This document shows, piece by piece, positions 2,982 to 56,499 of a DNA stretch of 58,657 bases. The DNA lies in assembly GCA_964621395.1 (NCBI GenBank), contig CAZULS010000002.1, positions 236,252 to 294,908 on the forward strand. Reading direction: 5' to 3'. The stretch's first letter is position 1. Each line of letters opens with the position of its first letter. Below the pieces are notes generated by a model that was given only the letters and a program-made list of their open reading frames with translations, ran no database searches and had not been told where the DNA came from. The stretch comes from an uncultured Candidatus Saccharibacteria bacterium (GTDB lineage Bacteria; Patescibacteriota; Minisyncoccia; Phycocordibacterales; JACNGX01). A program made the translations under genes and the position numbers.

Positions 2982-3126
2982 ATAACAAAAAAATATGTGC
3001 TATTAATTCCTCTTATTATATCAATTTTGCACCACACAGAACACTCTTTTTCAAGGGATAACACAGCAAACCACACAAAAATATTTTTGGCAAATTATAC
3101 TGTATATGGTACACTTGTACGCGCTA

Positions 3127-3214: not shown

Positions 3215-3350
3215 ATGCCACACCTCAGATGCTAAATATTCTCCATACATTAAATTACCCCCCAAAGGGTCTAAACTATATGTATTGGGCACTTAGCTTA
3301 TGAGGTGTGGCATGTACGGAATCGAACGGCGGAGTATGTCTGGCGACTTA
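3215..3350 (+). ncRNA. partial tRNA-linked element (TLE-E0): 5' module only
   Basis: Arms ATGCCACACCTCA (3215-3227) and TGAGGTGTGGCAT (3301-3313) are followed by CGGAATCGAAC (3317-3327), which is complementary to the T-loop/stem of tRNA-Pro. The conserved 3' hairpin is missing. Confidence 0.5.
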
Positions 3351-3357
3351 ATTGTTT

Positions 3358-3428
3358 GTCATCCCGCACTTGACCCTAAACCACAAGCGGTCGGATACAA
3401 TACGGGATCTTCCCGAATATCCTCAAAG
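3358..3428 (+). repeat. long GTCAT hairpin variant (GTCATCCCGCACTTGA-insert-CGGGATC plus tail)
   Basis: Near-identical second copy at 26691-26760. Confidence 0.75.
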
Positions 3429-3440
3429 ACAAAAGAAGAA

Positions 3441-3511
3441 CGGGCCATAGTACAGTGGCAGTATGTACCCATGGGGTGGGTATGGCGGCGGTTCGATTCC
3501 GCCTGGCCCGA
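3441..3511 (+). tRNA. tRNA-Pro (anticodon GGG), no encoded CCA
   Basis: Acceptor CGGGCCA/TGGCCCG, anticodon loop ATGGGGT, T-arm GGCGG-TTCGATT-CCGCC. Confidence 0.9.
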
Positions 3512-3695
3512 ACGAACGAAGTGAGTGAGGGTCAGAGGGATGCAACTGCTTGCATCCCGTGCGGAATCGAAGGGCCGGAATATATCCTGCGCTTGCGCAG
3601 GATTTGAGGCGCCGTCCAAGAGTACTTGGCGAAATACAAGCTTCAGCGCAGTATTTCGGTTAGTAACTCTGGGACGATTCGCCTGGCCCGAACGA
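3512..3695 (+). ncRNA. tRNA-linked structured element TLE-E1 plus displaced partial tRNA-Pro 3' copy
   Basis: Hairpin at 3537-3558. GCGGAATCGAA (3561-3571) is the rc of the tRNA T-loop plus 3' T-stem. The conserved terminal hairpin spans 3614-3675 and ends TTAGTAACTCTGGGAC. Positions 3675-3695 repeat the tRNA from C56 to 4 nt past its end. Confidence 0.65.
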
Positions 3696-3696
3696 G

Positions 3697-3748
3697 AAAA
3701 CCCGAGGTTAAACCTTTGGATTTATCCAAAGGTTTAACCTCGGGTTTT
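3697..3748. terminator. 52-bp compound palindrome, probable bidirectional terminator
   Basis: AAAACCCGAGGTTAAACCTTTGGA-TTTATC-CAAAGGTTTAACCTCGGGTTTT, lying between the tRNA operon and convergent genes. Confidence 0.6.
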
Positions 3749-4075: not shown

Positions 4076-4092
4076 TACAACATTTTAGAAAA

Positions 4093-5016
4093 TTACACAA
4101 CATCCCCCACGACCATATGCACAATATGCTCCATAACCTCTTTTTTCGTCGCCCCCACGTTCTCCATTGCACTGTGGAGCGGTGAGGTGGCGGTGAAATC
4201 AGGTGTGGTGCGTACATCACGCACGATAATTTTCTTTGGTGTGAGCGTGAGATCCACGCGAATGAATCCTTCAAGCGAGAGCGCATCGGCTGTGGCACGA
4301 GCGGTTCGTTCGGCGTCTTTCCCCTCTTCTTTTGACCATACCTGAGGTATGCCGGCGATTGTAGATACCGGAGGGAATACATATCGTTCTTCTCCGCGAA
4401 ATTCGTCAATGAGGTACACGCTCATATGTTTTCCCTGCACGTCTTCTTCTACAAACACATCGCGCACGCCAGGTTGCATATCTGAAAGTGTATGTTCCAC
4501 CTCTTCAATAGCCATAAGTGGTGAAGCCATGTGGGCATTCTCTTCCACAGGAACACTCACAATGCGGAGCGGTAAAGGATGCGTTCGCACAATCGCCAAT
4601 GCCACCTCTTGAGCACTCGGCGCATCATATGCTCGGAGCGAAACCGCATGCGGTGTGTGTATGTCGTTCTCCTTGAGGAGCGTGGCACGTCTTTCCGGAT
4701 GATGAGCGGCTTGTTCCACAAAAGGAGACGCTCCTATATACGGAATACCATGCTGCTCGGCGAGGGTTACTATGCATACGGACATAGGTGACGCACCGGG
4801 AAAGACGGGCACCACAAGAGAAAGTGTGTCGAGTATACGTGAGGGTTCCACATGTATTCCGCCTTTCCACCACTTCCCTTTCTCATCGACAAAAATATCT
4901 TCCGTATCGTATACAATATCTTCACATGCGCGAATGAGTGCCGCGCCAAGTTCGAGCGAGCGCTCGCGTTCGTGTGCTTCTCCTCCCCGTATGATACCAA
5001 TGCGTTCTGCGTACAT
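4093..5016 (-). CDS. ddl: D-alanine--D-alanine ligase-like ATP-grasp enzyme
   Basis: The N-terminal RIGIIRGGEAHERERSLELG and C-terminal GFIRVDL..TTPDFTATSP resemble Ddl family signatures. Confidence 0.7.
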   Translation of the reverse strand: MYAERIGIIRGGEAHERERSLELGAALIRACEDIVYDTEDIFVDEKGKWWKGGIHVEPSRILDTLSLVVPVFPGASPMSVCIVTLAEQHGIPYIGASPFVEQAAHHPERRATLLKENDIHTPHAVSLRAYDAPSAQEVALAIVRTHPLPLRIVSVPVEENAHMASPLMAIEEVEHTLSDMQPGVRDVFVEEDVQGKHMSVYLIDEFRGEERYVFPPVSTIAGIPQVWSKEEGKDAERTARATADALSLEGFIRVDLTLTPKKIIVRDVRTTPDFTATSPLHSAMENVGATKKEVMEHIVHMVVGDVV

Positions 5017-5097: not shown

Positions 5098-5139
5098 GTA
5101 AAAATAAGTTGTCATTCTGACCCCCGAGCCGGAATCTTA

Positions 5140-5191
5140 CAAAACCAAAGACTATCTTTGGTATGTATACCAAAGATAGTCTTTGGTTTTG
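5140..5191. repeat. P52 compound palindrome, copy 1
   Basis: CAAAACCAAAGACTATCTTTGGTAT-GT-ATACCAAAGATAGTCTTTGGTTTTG. Confidence 0.9.
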
Positions 5192-7558: not shown

Positions 7559-7619
7559 TTGCGGGTAATAAGCGGCGCTGTGCATTTATGCACAGCGCCG
7601 CTTATTTAAATAATAACTT

Positions 7620-7702
7620 GTCATCCTGAACTTGATTCAGGATCCAGGCAGACACGAATATGTGCACAAAACTCTAGATTCCGGCTCGGGGGCCGGAATG
7701 AC
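7620..7702. repeat. convergent doublet of GTCAT hairpins (REP/BIME-like)
   Basis: GTCATCCTGAACTTGATTCAGGATC (7620-7644) and, on the rc strand, GTCATTCCGGCCCCCGAGCCGGAATC (7677-7702). Confidence 0.75.
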
Positions 7703-11861: not shown

Positions 11862-11913
11862 CAAAACCAAAGACTATCTTTGGTATACATACCAAAGATA
11901 GTCTTTGGTTTTG
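11862..11913. repeat. P52 compound palindrome, copy 2 (centre AC)
   Basis: Same 24-bp arms as copy 1. Confidence 0.9.
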
Positions 11914-14244: not shown

Positions 14245-14318
14245 GTGGGTATACTGTAGCATAAAATGAGGAGATTAGGAGATTAAAGGTTAAGAATTAA
14301 CAGCACACTCTTTTTAGT

Positions 14319-14343
14319 GTCATCCCGCACTTGATGCGGGATC
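14319..14343 (+). repeat. GTCAT hairpin (CCCGCA stem class)
   Basis: GTCATCCCGCACTTGATGCGGGATC. Confidence 0.8.
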
Positions 14344-14346
14344 TTG

Positions 14347-14398
14347 CAAAACCAAAGACTATCTTTGGTATACATACCAAAGATAGTCTTTGGTTTTG
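14347..14398. repeat. P52 compound palindrome, copy 3 (centre AC)
   Basis: Same arms as the other P52 copies. Confidence 0.9.
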
Positions 14399-14535
14399 TT
14401 CCACTTTCCGAAACAACTCGCTCGAGACTGAGCACCAAACCTATGTGTTTGGAAATCTGGTATGTCATCCTCAGTGATTTTACTTCTTAACGTCCTCTGT
14501 GCCATCTCAGTCATAAGTTTAGTGCTTGGTGACAG
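14399..14535 (-). repeat. M140 module, copy b
   Basis: Reverse complement of the 11719-11861 family. Confidence 0.8.
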
Positions 14536-22381: not shown

Positions 22382-22559
22382 TCGTGCTGCCGGACTAGGA
22401 GTGCTCACTGCTCCCAAGCACCACTTTCGTAAACGAAAGGTGGTGTTCGGTCCGCTCGCGGAACCCACGGTTCCACGGACATCCTCCACGGGGCCGTTCC
22501 GGCGACCCCGACCCCCGACGAGTTCGAGTCCTAGTTCGTCGCTCTCGCTATCGCTCGTG
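22382..22559 (-). ncRNA. variant tRNA-linked element (TLE-E5) with displaced tRNA-Gln 3' copy
   Basis: The 19-nt direct repeat TCGTGCTGCCGGACTAGGA occurs at 22382-22400 and 22555-22573. A hairpin at 22516-22541 presents, in tRNA sense, ACTAGGACTCGAAC, the rc of the T-arm of tRNA-Gln. It shares the ACACCACYTTC/GAAAGTGGTG stem with TLE-E4. Confidence 0.5.
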
Positions 22560-22630: not shown

Positions 22631-22685
22631 ATGTCGTGTCATGATAACACTTTTTTGTGTTTAGTCAAACGGATGCACAAAATCT

Positions 22686-22748
22686 GTCATTCCGGGCTTG
22701 ACCCGGAATCTAGGACAACGATAGATTCTGAATCAAGTTCAGAATGAC
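22686..22748. repeat. convergent doublet of GTCAT hairpins
   Basis: GTCATTCCGGGCTTGACCCGGAATC and, on the rc strand, GTCATTCTGAACTTGATTCAGAATC. Confidence 0.75.
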
Positions 22749-24295: not shown

Positions 24296-25016
24296 AAGGA
24301 CCATGTCTGTAAGCCGAATTCTGTACGCGCTACGCGCGCGATAATGATTTATCTGGGATGTGTGTTGCCACACACCTCAATGCGGCACTCCGAGCACCAC
24401 TTTTGGTAAAAAATCTTTTTCACCAAAAGTGGTGCTCAGCACGGCCTTGCACACAGGTAAGGATTTAGCCGTTTCACTAAAACATTCGCTTGCGAATGTT
24501 CGTGCGAACATCATGCGCTTCTGCATGATGTTTTAGCACCCGCGTTACCACGGTACTAACCCTGCTCTCCTGAAAAAGAAAAACCGGGTTTCGATTCCTT
24601 TCGGAATACGACGTCTCTGCTCGCACCTCTATAGCCCCTTCAAGCTACCGACGGGCGTTACCCGCTACCCTTTTCCGACACCACTTTCATGTACTTGCTC
24701 TTTAAGAGCCTGTTCATAATCTCATGTCGTGCGTAATGCATCATATACCGAGCGAAAATCGTGAAAAATGACGAAGGAGTACTCTCGTACTTCAAGGCAT
24801 TTTGAGCGATTTGCAGCCGGTATATGATGTGTTAAGCCGACAAGGATATATTGTTCTTCATTCAATGCCGTTGAGATTATGAACAGGCTCTAAGGACGAA
24901 TAACCAACATGCTCGGTATCGCCCCTTCTCTCTGCAACTCCACAAAAGTGGTGTCGGATGTGTTCGGACTTTCCTCTAATGTTTCAAGAAACATCAGCCA
25001 TTACCCAACATGGCGT
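24296..25016 (-). ncRNA. rnpB: RNase P RNA, about 720 nt, expanded by repeat insertions
   Basis: The minus strand carries GAGGAAAGTCCGAACAC (CR-I like, ~24962-24978) and ACAGAATTCGGCTTAC (CR-V like, ~24309-24324), plus GGGTAACGCCCGT. P1-like CCATGT/ACATGG ends are present. A terminator hairpin lies at 24261-24286. Confidence 0.85.
24705..24891 (+). mobile_element. R185 TIR element inserted inside rnpB
   Basis: 20-bp terminal inverted repeats AGAGCCTGTTCATAATCTCA / TGAGATTATGAACAGGCTCT. A near-identical copy lies at 38879-39060. Confidence 0.8.
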
Positions 25017-25399: not shown

Positions 25400-26668
25400 C
25401 TAAAGCCGTCTCAGAAACTCCCCTGCTATTCTGTATACATCTTGATACGTGTCTGCATTCATGAGCTTCATGCGGAGTTCTTTTGCTCCAGGGAATCCAC
25501 GGACGTATGCGGAATAGTGCTTTTTCATGATGGCGAAGTTTTTGTTTGGGTGCATTTTTTCATAGAGTTTCGTGTGCTCGGTGAGTGTTTCAAGAATTTC
25601 TTCTACACTGCATGTATGCTCACCCCGCACCACGAGGGGTGCGGGGTTCTCTTCGTGCATGCCGCGCTGCTCACGCGGTGTATGAAGGAATATCCAAGGA
25701 TTACCAAACACCGCGCGACCAATCATGATGCCGTCGGCGCCGGTCTCTTGTGCTTTGTGTATACCGTCGGAAATGTTCGTAACATCACCATTACCGATAA
25801 TGAGCGTATGAGGTGCGTATTCATTTCGCAGCTCCACTGTACGTGCAACTCGCTCCCAACGTGCCGGTACTTTCGACATATCCTTGCGCGTGCGGGCATG
25901 GATAGTCAACGCGGGAAGATTGAGTGAAAGAAGCTCGGGAATCCACTCTTCCAGTATATCTTTCGAGAAACCAATGCGCGTCTTCACCGACACCGGCGTA
26001 TCTTTTCCCGCCGCTTTTACTCCTTCGCGCACCGCTTCCACAATCTCCTTTGCGCGCTTGGGATCACGAATAAGATCGGCGCCGGCGCGCTGCTTGATAA
26101 TCGCCTCTTGAGGGCATCCCATATTGATATCGATGCCATTGAAATTAAGCTTCGCCACTTCGCGCGCACCGATACACATCGTCTCCGGATTACCCCCAAA
26201 AATCTGCGCGATAATCGGTCGTTGCTTTTTGGTATAGGCGAGGTCGGAAATGAGATGAGGTCGCCCTTCATCGCTCGCTAATCCGTCGCAAGCGACGAAT
26301 TCAGTCCACATGATGTCCGGTCCCCCGTGTTTTGTGCTCATCAACGAATCAAACCCTCTAAAAACAGGAAAAGGTAAGAAGGAATTTTTCATGAGCTCCG
26401 CTTGGCAGTCCTCGCATCGAATATTCGGCTGCGCCTCGTTACTCAAACACGCCGCACAGGAGTGCGCCGTATTTTCCGTAACATCGGCTCGCACGAATCT
26501 TCGCCACGAGAACAAGCCATTTTCAGAGGGTTCAATTCTACTTTTCCTCGCAATAATTTCACGGAAGGCATTGTCGGTGGCATCTGCCATCGGCGCAAGC
26601 GCAAAAAACGGCTTCTTTCCTCGAACCGTATCCCACACATTCTTTTCTTGTCGGTGAAAGGTGAACAT
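25400..26668 (-). CDS. dus: tRNA-dihydrouridine synthase carrying a ~70-aa repeat-derived insertion
   Basis: LAPMADATDNAFR, IDINMGCP and a TIM-barrel Dus pattern. The start was set at MFTFHRQEK (26668). The track ORF extension to 26893 runs through repeats. Confidence 0.88.
   Translation of the reverse strand: MFTFHRQEKNVWDTVRGKKPFFALAPMADATDNAFREIIARKSRIEPSENGLFSWRRFVRADVTENTAHSCAACLSNEAQPNIRCEDCQAELMKNSFLPFPVFRGFDSLMSTKHGGPDIMWTEFVACDGLASDEGRPHLISDLAYTKKQRPIIAQIFGGNPETMCIGAREVAKLNFNGIDINMGCPQEAIIKQRAGADLIRDPKRAKEIVEAVREGVKAAGKDTPVSVKTRIGFSKDILEEWIPELLSLNLPALTIHARTRKDMSKVPARWERVARTVELRNEYAPHTLIIGNGDVTNISDGIHKAQETGADGIMIGRAVFGNPWIFLHTPREQRGMHEENPAPLVVRGEHTCSVEEILETLTEHTKLYEKMHPNKNFAIMKKHYSAYVRGFPGAKELRMKLMNADTYQDVYRIAGEFLRRL
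26346..26538 (+). mobile_element. R200 TIR element, copy C, inside the dus reading frame
   Basis: DNA alignable to 32527-32721 and 41329-41524 (CTTGGCA..CTCGCA..ATATTCGGCTG..CATCGGCTCGCACGAAT..CACGAGAA.AAGCCATTT). Its own arms are GAATCAAACCCTCTAAAAA / TTTTCAGAGGGTTCAATTC. Confidence 0.75.
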
Positions 26669-26690
26669 TGTTAGACAAAAGATAACAGGT

Positions 26691-26760
26691 GTCATCCCGC
26701 ACTTGATCCTAAACCACAAGTGGTCGGATGCAATGCGGGATCTTCCCGAATAACCTTCAA
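26691..26760 (+). repeat. long GTCAT hairpin variant, copy 2
   Basis: Matches 3358-3428. Confidence 0.75.
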
Positions 26761-31017: not shown

Positions 31018-31034
31018 CGGATATATTTTTATCC

Positions 31035-31109
31035 GTCATCCCGCACTTGATGCGGGATCTCGAGAGAGTTGTTTCAAAAAGTAAGATCCCGCATCGAGTG
31101 CGGGATGAC
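31035..31109. repeat. convergent doublet of GTCAT hairpins (both CCCGCA class)
   Basis: GTCATCCCGCACTTGATGCGGGATC and, on the rc strand, GTCATCCCGCACTCGATGCGGGATC. Confidence 0.75.
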
Positions 31110-32526: not shown

Positions 32527-32721
32527 AGAACCCATCTCACATTAAACCGCTAAAAATAACACTTTGCACTTCGTGTAGATGCTTGGCAATTCTCGCACTC
32601 TCTGTTCTGGCTGCGTCTCGTCGCTCAACCAGAGCGCACGAGAGTGCGGCACGGTTTCCGCGACTGCAACTCGCTCAGCGAGAGAGTGCGAGAATAAGCA
32701 ATTTAATGTGAGATGGGTTCT
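32527..32721 (+). mobile_element. R200 TIR element, copy A, 49 nt upstream of topA
   Basis: Arms AGAACCCATCTCACATTAAA / TTTAATGTGAGATGGGTTCT. An internal long imperfect palindrome has a central CGCAC-GAGA-GTGCG hairpin. Confidence 0.8.
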
Positions 32722-35772: not shown

Positions 35773-35909
35773 GGTAACGTTGGGACAACGTTGTTCCAAC
35801 GTTGGGTGTTTCAAAAAGTGGATTACGGACAAAACCAAAGACTATCTTTGGTATGTATACCAAAGATAGTCTTTGGTTTTGAAAGATCCTGAATCAAGTT
35901 CAGGATGAC
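35773..35909. repeat. N35 module + P52 copy 4 (35830-35881) + GTCAT hairpin (35885-35909, rc)
   Basis: GGTAACGTTGGGACAACGTTGTTCCAACGTTGGG, then ..GTGGATTACGGA plus P52, then the rc of GTCATCCTGAACTTGATTCAGGATC. Confidence 0.8.
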
Positions 35910-40490: not shown

Positions 40491-40529
40491 CGCCCGTGTT
40501 TTTCTTTTTTCTTATTTCAAAAAATTATT

Positions 40530-40613
40530 GTCATCCCGCACTTGATGCGGGATCCAGAGCAAGACAAACTCATGAGACAAATCTCTAGATTCCGGCTCAG
40601 AGGCCGGAATGAC
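40530..40613. repeat. convergent doublet of GTCAT hairpins
   Basis: GTCATCCCGCACTTGATGCGGGATC and, on the rc strand, GTCATTCCGGCCTCTGAGCCGGAATC. Confidence 0.8.
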
Positions 40614-41328: not shown

Positions 41329-41524
41329 AGAACCCATCTCATATTAAACCGCCTAAGATAATACTTTTTACACTTCGTGTAAGAGCTTGGCAATTCTCGC
41401 ACCACATATTCGGCTGTGCCTTGTCTCTCAACCACACCGCACGAAAGTGCGGCACGGTCTCCGAGACATCGGCTCGCACGAATATGCGGCACGAGAATAA
41501 GCCATTTAATATGAGACGGGTTCT
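41329..41524 (+). mobile_element. R200 TIR element, copy B, between the divergent prx and miaA genes
   Basis: Arms AGAACCCATCTCATATTAAA / TTTAATATGAGACGGGTTCT, with a central CCGCAC-GAAA-GTGCGG hairpin. Confidence 0.8.
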
Positions 41525-43780: not shown

Positions 43781-43967
43781 GTTACGAACTACGAACGTAT
43801 ACGAACATACGAATACAGCTTCTGTCACCCTATCCATTTTAGTGTCATTCTGAACTCGATTCAGAATCTTCGTCAGTATTCTGGATTCCTGGTCAAGCCA
43901 GGAATGACGGGAGAGTAGCTTACACTAGGATATTTTCGTATGTTCGTATACGTTCGTACTTCGTACC
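43780..43967. repeat. word-like ACGAA inverted arms (36 nt) enclosing a GTCAT hairpin doublet
   Basis: GGTTACGAACTACGAACGTATACGAACATACGAATA pairs with ATTTTCGTATGTTCGTATACGTTCGTACTTCGTACCC. Hairpins lie at 43844-43868 and 43884-43908. Confidence 0.75.
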
Positions 43968-45986: not shown

Positions 45987-46072
45987 GTAGAAAATCCCCG
46001 CAAGGGGATTTTCTACTGGAGGCCACGGAGAGCAAGGCAATTGCTTGCCTTGCGTCGGGAATCGAACCCGCC
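45987..46072 (+). ncRNA. partial tRNA-linked element (TLE-E6): inverted copy of the tRNA-Cys 3' half split by a hairpin
   Basis: Hairpin at 45987-46016. TGGAGGCCACGG (46017-46028) is the rc of the tRNA 3' end. A second hairpin lies at 46032-46053. CGGGAATCGAACCCGCC (46056-46072) is the rc of the T-arm. Confidence 0.5.
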
Positions 46073-46086
46073 AGAGACTTCTGTGA

Positions 46087-46746
46087 TTAGACAATGTCAT
46101 ACTCCTCCGGCGTAAATATCAACTCATCCCAATCCGTAATCGCCTGATATTGAGACATCAGCATGTCAAACACCTCTAGTAGAACAGTGTCCCATTCCAT
46201 ATATTTCCGTTTCTTACTAATCACATCTTGTACCGAAGCATTGAGATGTGAGAACCGCCTCATGGTTACCCTAGGCATATCAACTTCGTGAATATTTGGA
46301 GCAAGGACATCCATTGATCTGGCATATTTTGCATCAAAAGTTTCATTTGCTTCATATTCGTCAAGATACGGATGTAGGCTTGGGTGCAGTACCTTTAATG
46401 CGGCCTCATACTCATCAACGCTATCTTGTTCTGTTTTATGATATGCAAATATCTCACCCACGACAGTCTCTCCAATATCGTGCACCGAGAGCATAATCAT
46501 TGCTCTACCCAAATCTACTTTATCCGAGTGTTCTATATGGGGGTAAAAATAAGAAGCAAGAATTGGTAAATGACCAACGTGTTCAATTAACGGCTCACGT
46601 AATACCTCATTACTATAGTCTTGTTTGTCCACTAATCCTTTTAGAGCAATCTGTGAATACCTATCGGCGGTTACAAGTGCACGCTTGGTAAACGAATAAG
46701 TATTCTGTAGCTTTAAAAAATCTTGAACTAATTCTTTTACTGTCAT
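46087..46746 (-). CDS. HD-domain phosphohydrolase
   Basis: H..HD motif (MLSVHDIGETVVGE). Confidence 0.6.
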   Translation of the reverse strand: MTVKELVQDFLKLQNTYSFTKRALVTADRYSQIALKGLVDKQDYSNEVLREPLIEHVGHLPILASYFYPHIEHSDKVDLGRAMIMLSVHDIGETVVGEIFAYHKTEQDSVDEYEAALKVLHPSLHPYLDEYEANETFDAKYARSMDVLAPNIHEVDMPRVTMRRFSHLNASVQDVISKKRKYMEWDTVLLEVFDMLMSQYQAITDWDELIFTPEEYDIV

Positions 46747-46779
46747 ATAGTTTACAGGTTAAGTGTAAATATGCCTAAA

Positions 46780-46951
46780 GGGATTCGGTCACAAGTCACT
46801 AAGCATAATACTTCGCCAAGGCTCGTATTCTGCTAAGTGCTTCCGACATGGCTGCGGCTTTCGAATCCCACGGCGCGACACATGGTCGCGCATCGCTTAT
46901 AGATTGGAGAGGTCAATTCGTGTTCACATCGACCACAGGAGTCTCTACATG
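46780..46951 (-). ncRNA. tRNA-linked structured element TLE-E3 (after tRNA-Leu-TAA)
   Basis: In tRNA sense: the hairpin GCGCG-ACCATGTGT-CGCGC, GTGGGATTCGAA (rc of the T-arm), and a conserved terminal hairpin (46788-46847) ending TTAGTGACTTGTGAC, followed by CGAATCCC (46780-46787). Confidence 0.6.
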
Positions 46952-47036
46952 TGCCCGGGGTGGGATTCGAACCCACGCGATCGCAATGATCAGGGGATTT
47001 TAAGTCCCCCGTGTCTACCAACTCCACCACCCGGGC
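46952..47036 (-). tRNA. tRNA-Leu (anticodon TAA)
   Basis: Acceptor GCCCGGG/CCCGGGC, anticodon loop CTTAAAA, long variable arm, T-arm GTGGG-TTCGAAT-CCCAC. Confidence 0.9.
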
Positions 47037-47039
47037 AGT

Positions 47040-47255
47040 AAAGCACGATGTTTGTGCTAGTGCGGACGGAGAGACTCGTCCCACGATTACTAATTATAAT
47101 GCTTCGCTAAAGCTCGCATTCTAATAAGTATCGCTGGACGCGGCTCGCAATTGTCGCAACAAGTTGCTCCAATATAGCTGCGCCGTTCGAGTCTCTCGGA
47201 CAAGACACATGGTCTTGTCCAGATATACACGTCCGTCATGACTTCAGTCTCTCTC
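47040..47255 (-). ncRNA. tRNA-linked structured element TLE-E2 (after tRNA-Leu-TAG) with 39-nt displaced tRNA 3' copy
   Basis: The core is 47079-47255. The 39-nt direct repeat at 47040-47078 equals 47256-47294 (tRNA C56 to 21 nt past the 3' end). It contains CGGACGTG (the 5' acceptor strand), the hairpin GGACAAG-ACCATGTGT-CTTGTCC, GAGAGACTCGAAC, and a terminal hairpin at 47078-47139. Confidence 0.7.
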
Positions 47256-47276
47256 AAAGCACGATGTTTGTGCTAG

Positions 47277-47358
47277 TGCGGACGGAGAGACTCGAACTCT
47301 CATGGGTTGCCCCGCCAGCTCCTAAGGCTGGTGCGTCTACCAATTTCGCCACGTCCGC
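47277..47358 (-). tRNA. tRNA-Leu (anticodon TAG)
   Basis: Acceptor GCGGACG/CGTCCGC, anticodon loop CTTAGGA, long variable arm, T-arm GAGAG-TTCGAGT-CTCTC. Confidence 0.9.
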
Positions 47359-47414
47359 TTTTTCTTTCCTGAAAAGAGCCGCTCTATCGTATGCTGATAA
47401 AACGGCTTTCTCGT

Positions 47415-47721
47415 GTCCATCCACCAGTCTCGTCCCACAGTCACTAAGTAAAATGCTCCGGGCACTCGCATTTTACAAAGTGCTACTGGACGCCGAACAC
47501 CACTTTCACTTACAACAAAAGATGGTCACTGCTCGTTAGGAGAAATTCCTAACATTTAATTCACCAATCAAAGTAATCAGTGAAAGTGGTGTTTGGTTCG
47601 ATTCCTGACATGCCACACCTCACATGCAATTTTTCTCAAGCACTATATATTTACAATACCATCGCAGTAAGTCTCTACAAAAGTATTCCGTGTGAGGTGT
47701 GGCATTGTGTCTGGACTAAAG
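47415..47721 (-). ncRNA. tRNA-linked structured element TLE-E4 (after tRNA-Lys) with a nested inverted-repeat hairpin
   Basis: A nested hairpin with ATGCCACACCTCA/TGAGGTGTGGCAT arms lies at 47610-47705. CAGGAATCGAACC is the rc of 47595-47607. Also present are an ACACCACTTTCAC/GTGAAAGTGGTGT stem, a terminal hairpin at 47432-47491, and the tRNA 3' copy CTGGTGGATGGAC (rc of 47415-47427). Confidence 0.65.
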
Positions 47722-47794
47722 TCCATCCACCAGGAATCGAACCTGGAACCTGCCGGTTAAGAGCCGGATGCTCTACCAATTGAGCTATGGATGG
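47722..47794 (-). tRNA. tRNA-Lys (anticodon CTT)
   Basis: Acceptor CCATCCA/TGGATGG (C1-G72), anticodon loop CTCTTAA, T-arm CCAGG-TTCGATT-CCTGG. Confidence 0.85.
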
Positions 47795-47830
47795 GTTCAA
47801 ACATCATATAATAAAAAACGTGTTCTCGCA

Positions 47831-47958
47831 ACAACAAAACCGTCCGACACCACTTACACAGAGTAAGTATGCGCTGATTAAAAACTCAAAACGACCACTG
47901 TTATGTTAGTGGTCGTTTTGAATATGCGAGTGTAAGTGGTGTCGGACGATTTTGTTGT
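47831..47958. repeat. 29-bp inverted repeat arms around an inner hairpin
   Basis: ACAACAAAACCGTCCGACACCACTTACAC pairs with GTGTAAGTGGTGTCGGACGATTTTGTTGT. The inner hairpin is CAAAACGACCAC..GTGGTCGTTTTG. Confidence 0.75.
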
Positions 47959-55263: not shown

Positions 55264-55274
55264 TCCCATACATT

Positions 55275-55299
55275 GTCATTCCCAACTCGATTGGGAATC
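55275..55299 (+). repeat. GTCAT hairpin (CCCAA class)
   Basis: GTCATTCCCAACTCGATTGGGAATC. Confidence 0.8.
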
Positions 55300-56444: not shown

Positions 56445-56447
56445 TTA

Positions 56448-56499
56448 CAAAACCAAAGACTATCTTTGGTATGCATACCAAAGATAGTCTTTGGTTTTG
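56448..56499. repeat. P52 compound palindrome, copy 5 (centre GC)
   Basis: Same arms as the other P52 copies. Confidence 0.9.

Follow-up and report, generated by a model that had tools for sequence, protein, structure and literature searches.

We analysed a stretch of DNA of 58,657 nucleotides, hereafter the window, from contig CAZULS010000002.1 of an uncultured bacterium labelled Candidatus Saccharibacteria, and we looked at a repeated hairpin, H3, that lies behind its tRNA genes. The window holds eight tRNA genes, and a Pfam scan of its 40 open reading frames (ORFs) returned housekeeping functions only (UvrABC, TGT, Dus, SerRS, DprA, TopA, RelA, ParB, MiaA, GyrA, IF-2 and RbfA). Four imperfect H3 hairpins of ~60 nt are present (Table 1), each located 100-230 nt 3' of a same-strand tRNA gene, namely tRNA-Pro(ggg), tRNA-Leu(taa), tRNA-Leu(tag) and tRNA-Lys(ctt), and we refer to the elements behind these genes as A, C, B and D, respectively. 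In total, 7/8 window tRNAs are followed by at least part of such an element. H3 is a real structure whose shape is maintained via compensatory mutations, and it belongs to a modular unit with arms that match the neighbouring tRNA.

Fold, covariation and strand of the H3 hairpin

When folded as RNA, the four H3 sequences of the window reached -22.5 to -25.3 kcal/mol (z = -3.9 to -5.2), and 0/200 shuffles were as good. The initial annotation of this DNA had located the four hairpins and drawn a common architecture for them by hand; the positions were exact and the architecture was found in all four copies. From the foot upwards, it consists of GTCC/GGAC, a mismatch at column pair 5.58 (A.G or G.U), a first variable box, a bulged A53, YACT/AGTR, a T.T mismatch at 14.48 that sits in a CTTAG/CTTAG pseudo-palindrome, a second variable box, AATRC/GYATT and an apical loop of 11-13 nt, for a stem of ~25 bp. 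A search pattern made from this architecture matched the window at the four H3 sites only, for a shuffle expectation of 0.00. Two details of the annotation had to be corrected. The loop sequence that it gave for three copies, GAGCYTTRGCGAA, is exact in two only, with AAGCTTCAGCGCA in copy A and a loop of 11 nt in copy D. Moreover, the four copies contain five G.T/T.G pairs instead of the four positions that had been counted, and zero A.C.

To obtain more copies, the pattern was run against one genome per species and then against metagenomes. It fixed seven pairs and left the variable boxes unconstrained. This yielded 68 true H3 copies, of which 45 are distinct and make up alignment A1, which was scored on the structure proposed by the annotation. 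Standard pairs were found in 91.2% of cells, and both-sided change was found in 13/23 pairs (170 cells). The covariation score of A1 was 0.426, compared with 0.171 +/- 0.010 for shuffles (0/500 reached it) and at most 0.112 for slid partners. The covariation of the paired boxes that had been read by hand from four copies is therefore strong on a larger alignment. The stem foot is GTCC...GGAC or GGTCG...TGACC in 45/45 sequences, and the apical loop is not conserved among copies. We then built a covariance model for H3, R1, which recovered 16 further divergent copies. In these copies, the apex is swapped for other hairpins, the foot and the irregularities are retained, and the pairs that the pattern had fixed also co-vary (GCTT/AGC, TTCTT/AGAA, ATTGC/GCAAT, CATGC/GCATG). 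Since even pattern-fixed pairs change in step, the pairing of H3 is under selection.

The annotation had further placed the fold in the tRNA orientation, and this is what we observed. Over A1, the tRNA-sense strand shows 40 G.T+T.G against 9 A.C+C.A (22 against 9 without column pair 5.58). Two purine-purine mismatches are conserved on this strand, A.G at 5.58 and G.A at 19.43, which would read C.T and T.C on the opposite strand, and T.T at 14.48 and the bulged A53 are found there as well. Its fold was the more stable one in 37/39 distinct H3 (mean difference 4.3 kcal/mol) and in 22/23 H2 hairpins, H2 being the hairpin that precedes H3 in the unit. Altogether, these results support the tRNA-sense strand as the favoured one, and selection on the base pairing of one strand rather than on a duplex DNA word. 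G.T and G.A are the best-tolerated mismatches also in DNA hairpins such as attC sites and the ends of IS200/IS605 elements. With DNA parameters, the tRNA-sense strand was favoured in 3/4 window copies, with a tie in the fourth. Because DNA parameters show a like asymmetry, the strand bias names the strand and not the molecule. The claim that RNA structure is selected is thus supported in part, for the pairing of one strand, and the selected form may be RNA or single-stranded DNA.

A modular unit with tRNA-matched arms

In tRNA orientation, the unit reads tRNA, trailer, acc', H1, T', H2, H3 and a direct tRNA repeat. The trailer is often a bidirectional terminator palindrome. The acc' arm is the complement of the acceptor 3' strand, the discriminator and the trailer, and the T' arm is the complement of tRNA positions 54/53-65 and ends in ..TCGAA(C). 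Between them, exactly at the tRNA 65/66 junction, lies H1, a perfect hairpin with a loop of AACTGCTT or CATGT. H2 occurs in two main types and makes up module M together with H3. The distal direct repeat starts exactly at tRNA position 57, after GTTC, and extends over 17-38 nt; in element B, all 38 nt are exact. Over ~50 loci, the units measure 140-300 bp and contain no ORF.

The junction with the tRNA-matched sequence depends on the subtype. It is 56|57 (GTTC|GA) in the GTCC subtype and 72|73 (..GC|ACA) in the GGTCG..TGACC subtype, whose inverted arm has merely 3-11 nt. The first 5 nt past H3 equal tRNA positions 57-61 in 29/43 distinct copies, nearly all those of the GTCC subtype included. 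GA borders the GTCC-type H2+H3 module on both sides. Terminal inverted repeats of this module were looked for by eye; the match, 6/9 positions, was unconvincing.

An exact 12-nt match of T' to its own tRNA was found in 17/43 distinct pairs and in 0/1754 cross pairs. Relaxed alignment gave arms of 12-13 nt in ~30 copies, whose host tRNAs are those for Val, Gly, Pro, Leu, Arg, Ser, Lys, Glu, Thr, Phe and Asp. The arms could have been a copy of the tRNA 5' strand, and this was ruled out, as G.U pairs (tRNA-Glu G2.U71, tRNA-Cys G52.U62) show them to be the Watson-Crick complement of the 3' strand.

One way to read this build is that H3 is part of a functional structured RNA, a tRNA-like mini-helix formed by acc', H1, T', H2, H3 and the distal repeat. 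Its stems would carry the sequence of the neighbouring tRNA, H1 would stand where nucleotides 8-48 would exit, and H2 and H3 would replace the T loop. RNase P and RNase Z could release it from tRNA precursors, and it could serve as a processing signal (an RNase III-type stem), a decoy or a regulator. We consider such an RNA possible but rather unlikely. The exact placement of H1 at 65/66 speaks for it, as does the fold that favours the sense strand. The distal repeat, which would be the 3' strand of the mini-helix, speaks against it. These repeats decay through point changes and insertions or deletions with no bias to retain pairing with the arms, often only 6-10 nt are left, and no G.U excess was found between arms and distal repeat (3 G.T vs 4 A.C). 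In addition, it is the real tRNA with its trailer that the arms match, not the distal copy, and H1 is dispensable, being absent from loci L023 and L045.

The direct repeats recall elements that integrate into tRNA genes. The units could be remnants or miniatures of elements targeted to tRNA genes by a tyrosine integrase, with the 3' part of the tRNA as attP and H3 as an arm-type or accessory site by attR. The repeats do run from the T loop to the tRNA 3' end or beyond, the proximal copy leaves the tRNA intact, and units accrete in tandem at the same site. We nevertheless find this origin quite improbable, as no integrase lies near these short units in ~50 loci, the inverted complement of the target is foreign to such elements, and the covariation indicates a single-strand fold and not duplex arm sites. 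Moreover, each tRNA species would need its own attP, because at least 20 tRNA species are occupied by near-identical modules.

The order of a constant module followed by a locus-specific sequence, identical to a genomic target that is preceded by a constant GTTC, is also that expected of a guide RNA. H2+H3 would then be a scaffold of the TnpB-omega-RNA or bridge-RNA kind, the distal repeat the guide and GTTC the target-adjacent motif, and a nuclease or recombinase encoded elsewhere would be directed to tRNA genes. The strand bias is compatible with an RNA, and in locus L033 (41-1400) an insertion sequence (IS) of the IS110 family (PF01548 + PF02371, 346 aa) lies exactly between T' and H2, with GA duplicated (..ATTCGA|IS|GAAC..). 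The IS110 family uses bridge RNAs (PMC11208160). We consider a guide RNA very unlikely all the same. The window contains no gene for TnpB, IscB, Cas or IS110, the putative target, an intact tRNA gene, would be attacked in the same locus, the guide is often decayed, the Rfam omega-RNA and HEARO models gave no match, and H3 lacks the large internal loops typical of bridge RNAs. The L033 insertion itself has a subterminal inverted repeat, ATAGAACCCTG, and a target-like GTGGATTCGAC in its 3' untranslated region.

Distribution, transcription and possible origin

All H3 copies from named genomes come from metagenome-assembled genomes (MAGs) of Patescibacteria, namely Ca. Yonathbacteria W9, Parcubacteria NIOZ-UU136 and MAGs labelled Paceibacterota, Kaiserbacteria and 'Saccharibacteria'; for contigs from metagenomes, no taxonomic label is given. 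Viral contigs gave four pattern matches and zero true H3 hairpins. Almost every true copy with a few hundred upstream bases is preceded, at a distance of 83-365 nt, by a same-strand tRNA. L083 and L058, with no tRNA in the locus, are exceptions, as is the second hairpin in L065 and L079, for which the nearest same-strand tRNA is just over 500 nt upstream. Among chance pattern matches, none folds into the H3 hairpin and none has a tRNA within 600 nt upstream. In L083 (6361-6540, minus), the rplB-rpsS spacer of a ribosomal-protein operon contains a sense-oriented GGTCG-type H2+H3, accompanied by a terminator-like palindrome, an H1-like hairpin and 11 nt of the rplB end in inverted copy. The H2+H3 module is thus not strictly bound to tRNA genes.

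Comparison of the copies gives signs of dynamics at the DNA level. The genome closest to the window is Yonathbacteria W9, with 80% protein identity for GyrA and 73% DNA identity for gyrA. H2+H3 of element A, at tRNA-Pro(ggg), is 97.3% identical over 112 nt to that of W9 locus L005, at tRNA-Gly(gcc), and H3 of element B is identical to the H3 located 3' of tRNA-Pro(cgg) in L006. When copies at different tRNAs are compared, TCGAA(C) marks the start of the stretch of identity and GGGAC|GA its end. H2 and H3 are not inherited as a fixed pair, since L020 and L021 have almost the same H3 with different H2 types, and H1 varies among copies that share H2+H3. Tandem arrays of whole units were found in L006, L078 and L025. 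In the syntenic W9 locus, the tRNA cluster is the same and the elements differ in number and completeness: H2/H3 is present at tRNA-Cys in W9 and absent in the window, tRNA-Leu(tag) has two units in W9 and one in the window, and the W9 copy at tRNA-Leu(taa) is interrupted by a miniature inverted-repeat transposable element (MITE).

We looked at transcription through consensus scans for promoters and terminators. On the minus strand, a promoter-like site lies 5' of tRNA-Lys (Table 1) and no terminator is predicted before 45901, so that tRNA-Lys, element D, tRNA-Leu(tag), element B, tRNA-Leu(taa), element C and an HD-domain gene probably form one transcript. On the plus strand, a promoter-like site at 3087-3115 precedes tRNA-Pro(cgg) and a strong terminator follows element A. 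Since the four window copies lie in predicted sense transcripts, an RNA hairpin should form in the window. For the structured RNA, it counts that these copies sit in predicted tRNA operons uninterrupted by a terminator on that strand, that element B takes up the whole tRNA-tRNA spacer and stops 3 nt short of the second tRNA, and that the L083 copy is sense-oriented in its operon. Furthermore, the probable orthologues at tRNA-Lys(ctt) in the window and in L025 differ by several compensatory changes. Against it, truncated or interrupted copies are common, about half of the related copies are located behind a strong bidirectional terminator, the apical loop varies, and Rfam gave no match. Reassortment, arrays and decay are more in line with selfish or concerted evolution of the DNA than with an indispensable RNA for each tRNA.

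The explanation that we prefer, and to which we give an even chance, is that H3 is the end module of a non-autonomous modular repeat at tRNA 3' ends, and that its foot is a recognised single-strand structure. The conserved foot abuts the junction with the target and the apex is replaceable. The foot may be a single-strand site because it is conserved and has extrahelical bases, the apex is free, the joining point lies at the foot and one strand is specifically favoured, all of which is also seen in attC sites and in the hairpins of transposon ends. The repeat family would occasionally settle after other highly expressed genes, in hosts that are Patescibacteria of the Yonathbacteria/Paceibacteria type. 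Selection would retain the fold of the tRNA-sense strand, with fixed irregularities near the foot and a free apex, and the foot would be the site of structure-specific recognition and joining for an enzyme encoded elsewhere and acting on single-stranded nucleic acid. The element would spread or homogenise at the DNA level, and the window copies would be carried along passively in transcription, as spacer RNA within two predicted tRNA operons. The data show the structure, its strand bias, the positions of the junctions, the modular build, the tRNA-matched arms and the decay of many copies; we infer mobility via a trans-acting enzyme, and single-stranded DNA rather than RNA as the selected form. 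The element may also have an RNA role, given its predicted transcription within tRNA operons.

Several observations weigh against this end-module explanation. The Pfam scan of the 40 window ORFs contained no transposase, integrase or reverse transcriptase, and no enzyme candidate was identified there. Neither a pair of empty and filled sites nor an excised form was seen; element-free palindromes (ANTC|GANT), considered as empty sites, were not above chance. We know of no transposition chemistry that yields an inverted target copy on one side and a direct copy on the other. The 97% identity of H2+H3 could reflect a constraint like that on tRNAs, as tRNA-Lys is 100% identical between the window and W9. 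Finally, all four window H3 lie in sense orientation inside predicted tRNA operon transcripts, and under such transcription, selection on RNA would yield the same covariation and strand bias.

The arms bring in a further geometry. The tRNA 3' end is triplicated forward-reverse-forward around the terminator loop and the H2+H3 module, and to our knowledge no described system makes such a triplication. The module might link the bottom-strand 3' end, with a GAA(C) overhang, to the top-strand 5' end at a break at 56|57, or two template switches might have occurred. It is improbable, though less so than an integrase or guide-RNA origin, that we are looking at a new tRNA-gene element that bridges both strands of one DNA end or arises by two template switches, which would leave each copy with antisense arms for its own tRNA, or else at 'shadow' mini-tRNAs, of which each tRNA gene would have one. 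Each of these, if true, would add a mechanism or an RNA class that has not been described to date. Bacteria of the candidate phyla radiation (CPR), among which the elements occur, are ultra-small and have tiny genomes, and yet 7/8 tRNA genes of the window are followed by parts of the element. A mobile element with such junctions would call for an enzyme acting on the T-loop DNA of tRNA genes and for an inverted copying of the target beyond current transposition models; an RNA would provide each tRNA with a structured companion that has its own acceptor and T-stem sequence. The tRNA-matched arms are thus a concrete, testable puzzle, with a real chance that they reflect new chemistry or a new RNA class, and R1 provides a marker for the lineage that can be used to map the elements.

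Table 1. Location of the tRNA-linked elements, their parts and other repeats in the window
Feature	Position	Strand	Remarks
H3 of element B	47078-47139	-	-22.5 kcal/mol, z = -4.8; R1 score 77.6 bits
H2 of element B (GGCGCAGC...GCGAGCCGC)	47140-47184	-	makes module M with H3
T' arm of element B, GAGAGACTCGAAC	47185-47197	-	exact complement of tRNA-Leu(tag) 53-65
H1 of element B	47198-47220	-	loop CATGT
acc' arm of element B, TGACGGACG	47230-47238	-	imperfect complement of acceptor 3' strand
Distal repeat of element B	47040-47077	-	tRNA-Leu(tag) from T-loop position 57 + 21-nt trailer
Proximal copy of the 38-nt repeat	47256-47293	-	tRNA-Leu(tag) 3' part + trailer
tRNA-Leu(tag), host of element B	47276-47358	-	
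H3 of element A	3614-3675	+	fold, R1 match
Element A: H1 (3537-3558), T' arm GCGGAATCGAA (3561-3571), H2 (3572-3613)	3537-3613	+	
Distal repeat of element A	3676-3695	+	tRNA-Pro(ggg) from position 57, 1-nt deletion; then terminator 3701-3744
tRNA-Pro(ggg), host of element A	3441-3511	+	
H3 of element C	46788-46847	-	GGTCG..TGACC subtype
Element C: linker, T' arm GTGGGATTCGAA (46860-46871), H1 (46873-46891)	46848-46891	-	
Short distal repeat of element C, GAATCCC	46780-46786	-	equals tRNA-Leu(taa) positions 57-63
tRNA-Leu(taa), host of element C	46951-47036	-	
H3 of element D	47432-47491	-	11-nt loop subtype
Element D: long H2b-type hairpin (47492-47595), T' arm CAGGAATCGAAC (47596-47607), long H1 (47612-47703)	47492-47703	-	
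Degenerate distal repeat of element D, GAGACTGGTGGATGGAC	47415-47431	-	
tRNA-Lys(ctt), host of element D	47721-47794	-	promoter-like site 47831-47803 (minus)
Partial element after tRNA-Cys	45987-46072	+	bidirectional terminator, acc', H1, full antisense T arm; no H2/H3
Partial element after tRNA-Pro(cgg)	3217-3356	+	long H1, T' arm, H2 start; cut off by another repeat
Variant element after tRNA-Gln, T' arm CTAGGACTCGAAC	22382-22534 (region to 22558)	-	G+C-rich hairpins, H2b-like hairpin, no H3; direct tRNA repeat begins at position 60, not 57
52-nt perfect hairpin (CAAAACCAAAGACTATCTTTGGTAT..ATACCAAAGATAGTCTTTGGTTTTG), five copies	5139-5191, 11862-11913, 14347-14399, 35830-35881, 56447-56499		nested in larger 80-210-nt repeats
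Short palindromic repeat, type TGTCATCCCGCACTTGATGCGGGATC, at least nine sites	3353-3382, 7615-7644, 14314-14343, 22681-22710, 26686-26715, 31030-31059, 40525-40554, 43839-43868, 55270-55299		one copy truncates the partial element after tRNA-Pro(cgg)
66-123-nt repeat	26400-26522, 32609-32674, 41385-41507		inside Dus ORF, at 5' ends of TopA and MiaA ORFs
H2b-type hairpin (GAGCACCACTTTTG..CAAAAGTGGTGCTC)	24392-24437		no adjoining tRNA

Other repeats were observed around the units and elsewhere in the window. One H3 (L059, ~560-700) has its apex replaced by a MITE of a separate family, whose ends are CCCAGCYCYACTTTCA...TGAAAGTRGRGCTGGG. This family is often located directly after the distal tRNA repeat (L005, L022, L025, L058). 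A conserved module of ~150 nt (GGGGTGAGAAAGCGAACAC..CCAAAAGGTGTACTGCTCCTGTAAGG) lies between two H3 in L021 (~4080-4370) and in L033 (1515-1660); it is probably non-coding, because the 28-codon ORF of one copy is broken in the other. In the window as a whole, direct repeats form at least 60 families and inverted repeats 411 pairs. The Pfam domains of the Dus, TopA and MiaA ORFs that carry the 66-123-nt repeat begin only at residues 66-99, and this repeat could be in frame or could be a shared leader with mis-called start codons. The H2b-type hairpin that stands apart from tRNA genes lies within ~700 nt (24300-25000) that have no ORF of at least 90 aa and no Rfam match.

Comparison with known systems

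Known RNA families were compared with the window through Rfam 15. Only tRNAs reached the gathering score, and nothing relevant appeared at E values up to 10 in 46700-47900; tRNA-like RNAs, tmRNA, Y-RNA-like RNAs, HEARO and IS605-orfB were rejected, as their covariance models gave no match. An RNA of the bottom strand ending at the bidirectional terminator was rejected as well, since the top strand gives the better fold for both H2 and H3. Readings of H2/H3 as group II intron domain V, as K-turn or as promoter did not fit, as judged by eye only. A literature search on tRNA repeats of Patescibacteria and CPR bacteria, T loops, mobile elements, tRNA-like RNAs and IS110 with tRNA retrieved no description of these elements.

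The repetitive extragenic palindromes of proteobacteria (REP), their bacterial interspersed mosaic elements (BIME) and REPINs, which are mobilised by REP-associated tyrosine transposases (RAYT, TnpA_REP), resemble the tRNA-linked units in many respects. Both are short imperfect palindromes at gene 3' ends, in intergenic or operon spacers, co-transcribed with the upstream gene, present in many copies with compensatory changes and devoid of coding capacity, and both form mosaics of reassorting hairpin modules. However, REP units have 20-40 nt and a GTAG head, whereas H3 has 60 nt and no such head. The elements described here are also tied to 56|57 in the T loop or to 72|73, with an inverted complement and a direct tRNA repeat, and the 58-kb window contains no RAYT gene (Y1 HUH); REP/BIME genomes carry such a gene, usually with the repeats on its flanks.

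In integron attC sites and the folded attP of CTX phage, as in H3, structure is conserved over sequence and one strand is active, a likeness confirmed here by covariation and asymmetry. The attC sites further share extrahelical bases or mismatches near the foot, a variable apex, joining at the foot and units that can form arrays beside a fixed entry site. They differ in their core boxes RYYYAAC/GTTRRRY, absent from all 45 H3 sequences, in a core of 7 nt where the target repeat here has 17-38 nt, and in the cassette ORF, intI and attI that accompany them; the units here have no ORF, the window has no integrase and no link to IntI or Xer was shown.

IS200/IS605 elements and their miniature derivatives (palindrome-associated transposable elements, PATEs) have strand-specific subterminal hairpins with mismatches at their ends and insert 3' of a short fixed word of 4-5 nt, which would be GTTC here. 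Contrary to the tRNA-linked units, with their 17-38-nt direct repeats and inverted target copy, IS200/IS605 elements make neither target duplication nor inverted copy and are cleaved outside the hairpin; tnpA and tnpB were not found in the window protein scan. Integrative elements that target tRNA genes share insertion at the T loop, the direct repeat of the tRNA 3' part and the intact proximal tRNA, but they are ~100 times larger and carry an integrase, and the elements here have no integrase, occupy many tRNA species and possess antisense arms. IS110/IS1111 elements have a DEDD transposase, duplicate a 2-nt core and use a bridge or seek RNA with two internal guide loops. GA is found on both sides of the GTCC-type module here and a true IS110-family IS sits in the L033 element, but H2 and H3 have no bridge-type internal loops and the window has no transposase.

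The closest kinds are REP/BIME mosaics, attC sites, IS200/IS605 ends and tRNA-targeting elements. In our preferred explanation, the element is REP/BIME-like in kind and attC-like in the design of its hairpin. The attC sites, IS200/IS605 ends and tRNA-targeting elements each differ from it in at least one tested defining feature, and REP/BIME mosaics share its reassorting modules and not its unit length or the lack of a GTAG head. Altogether, we rate the tRNA-linked element among the structured intergenic repeats.

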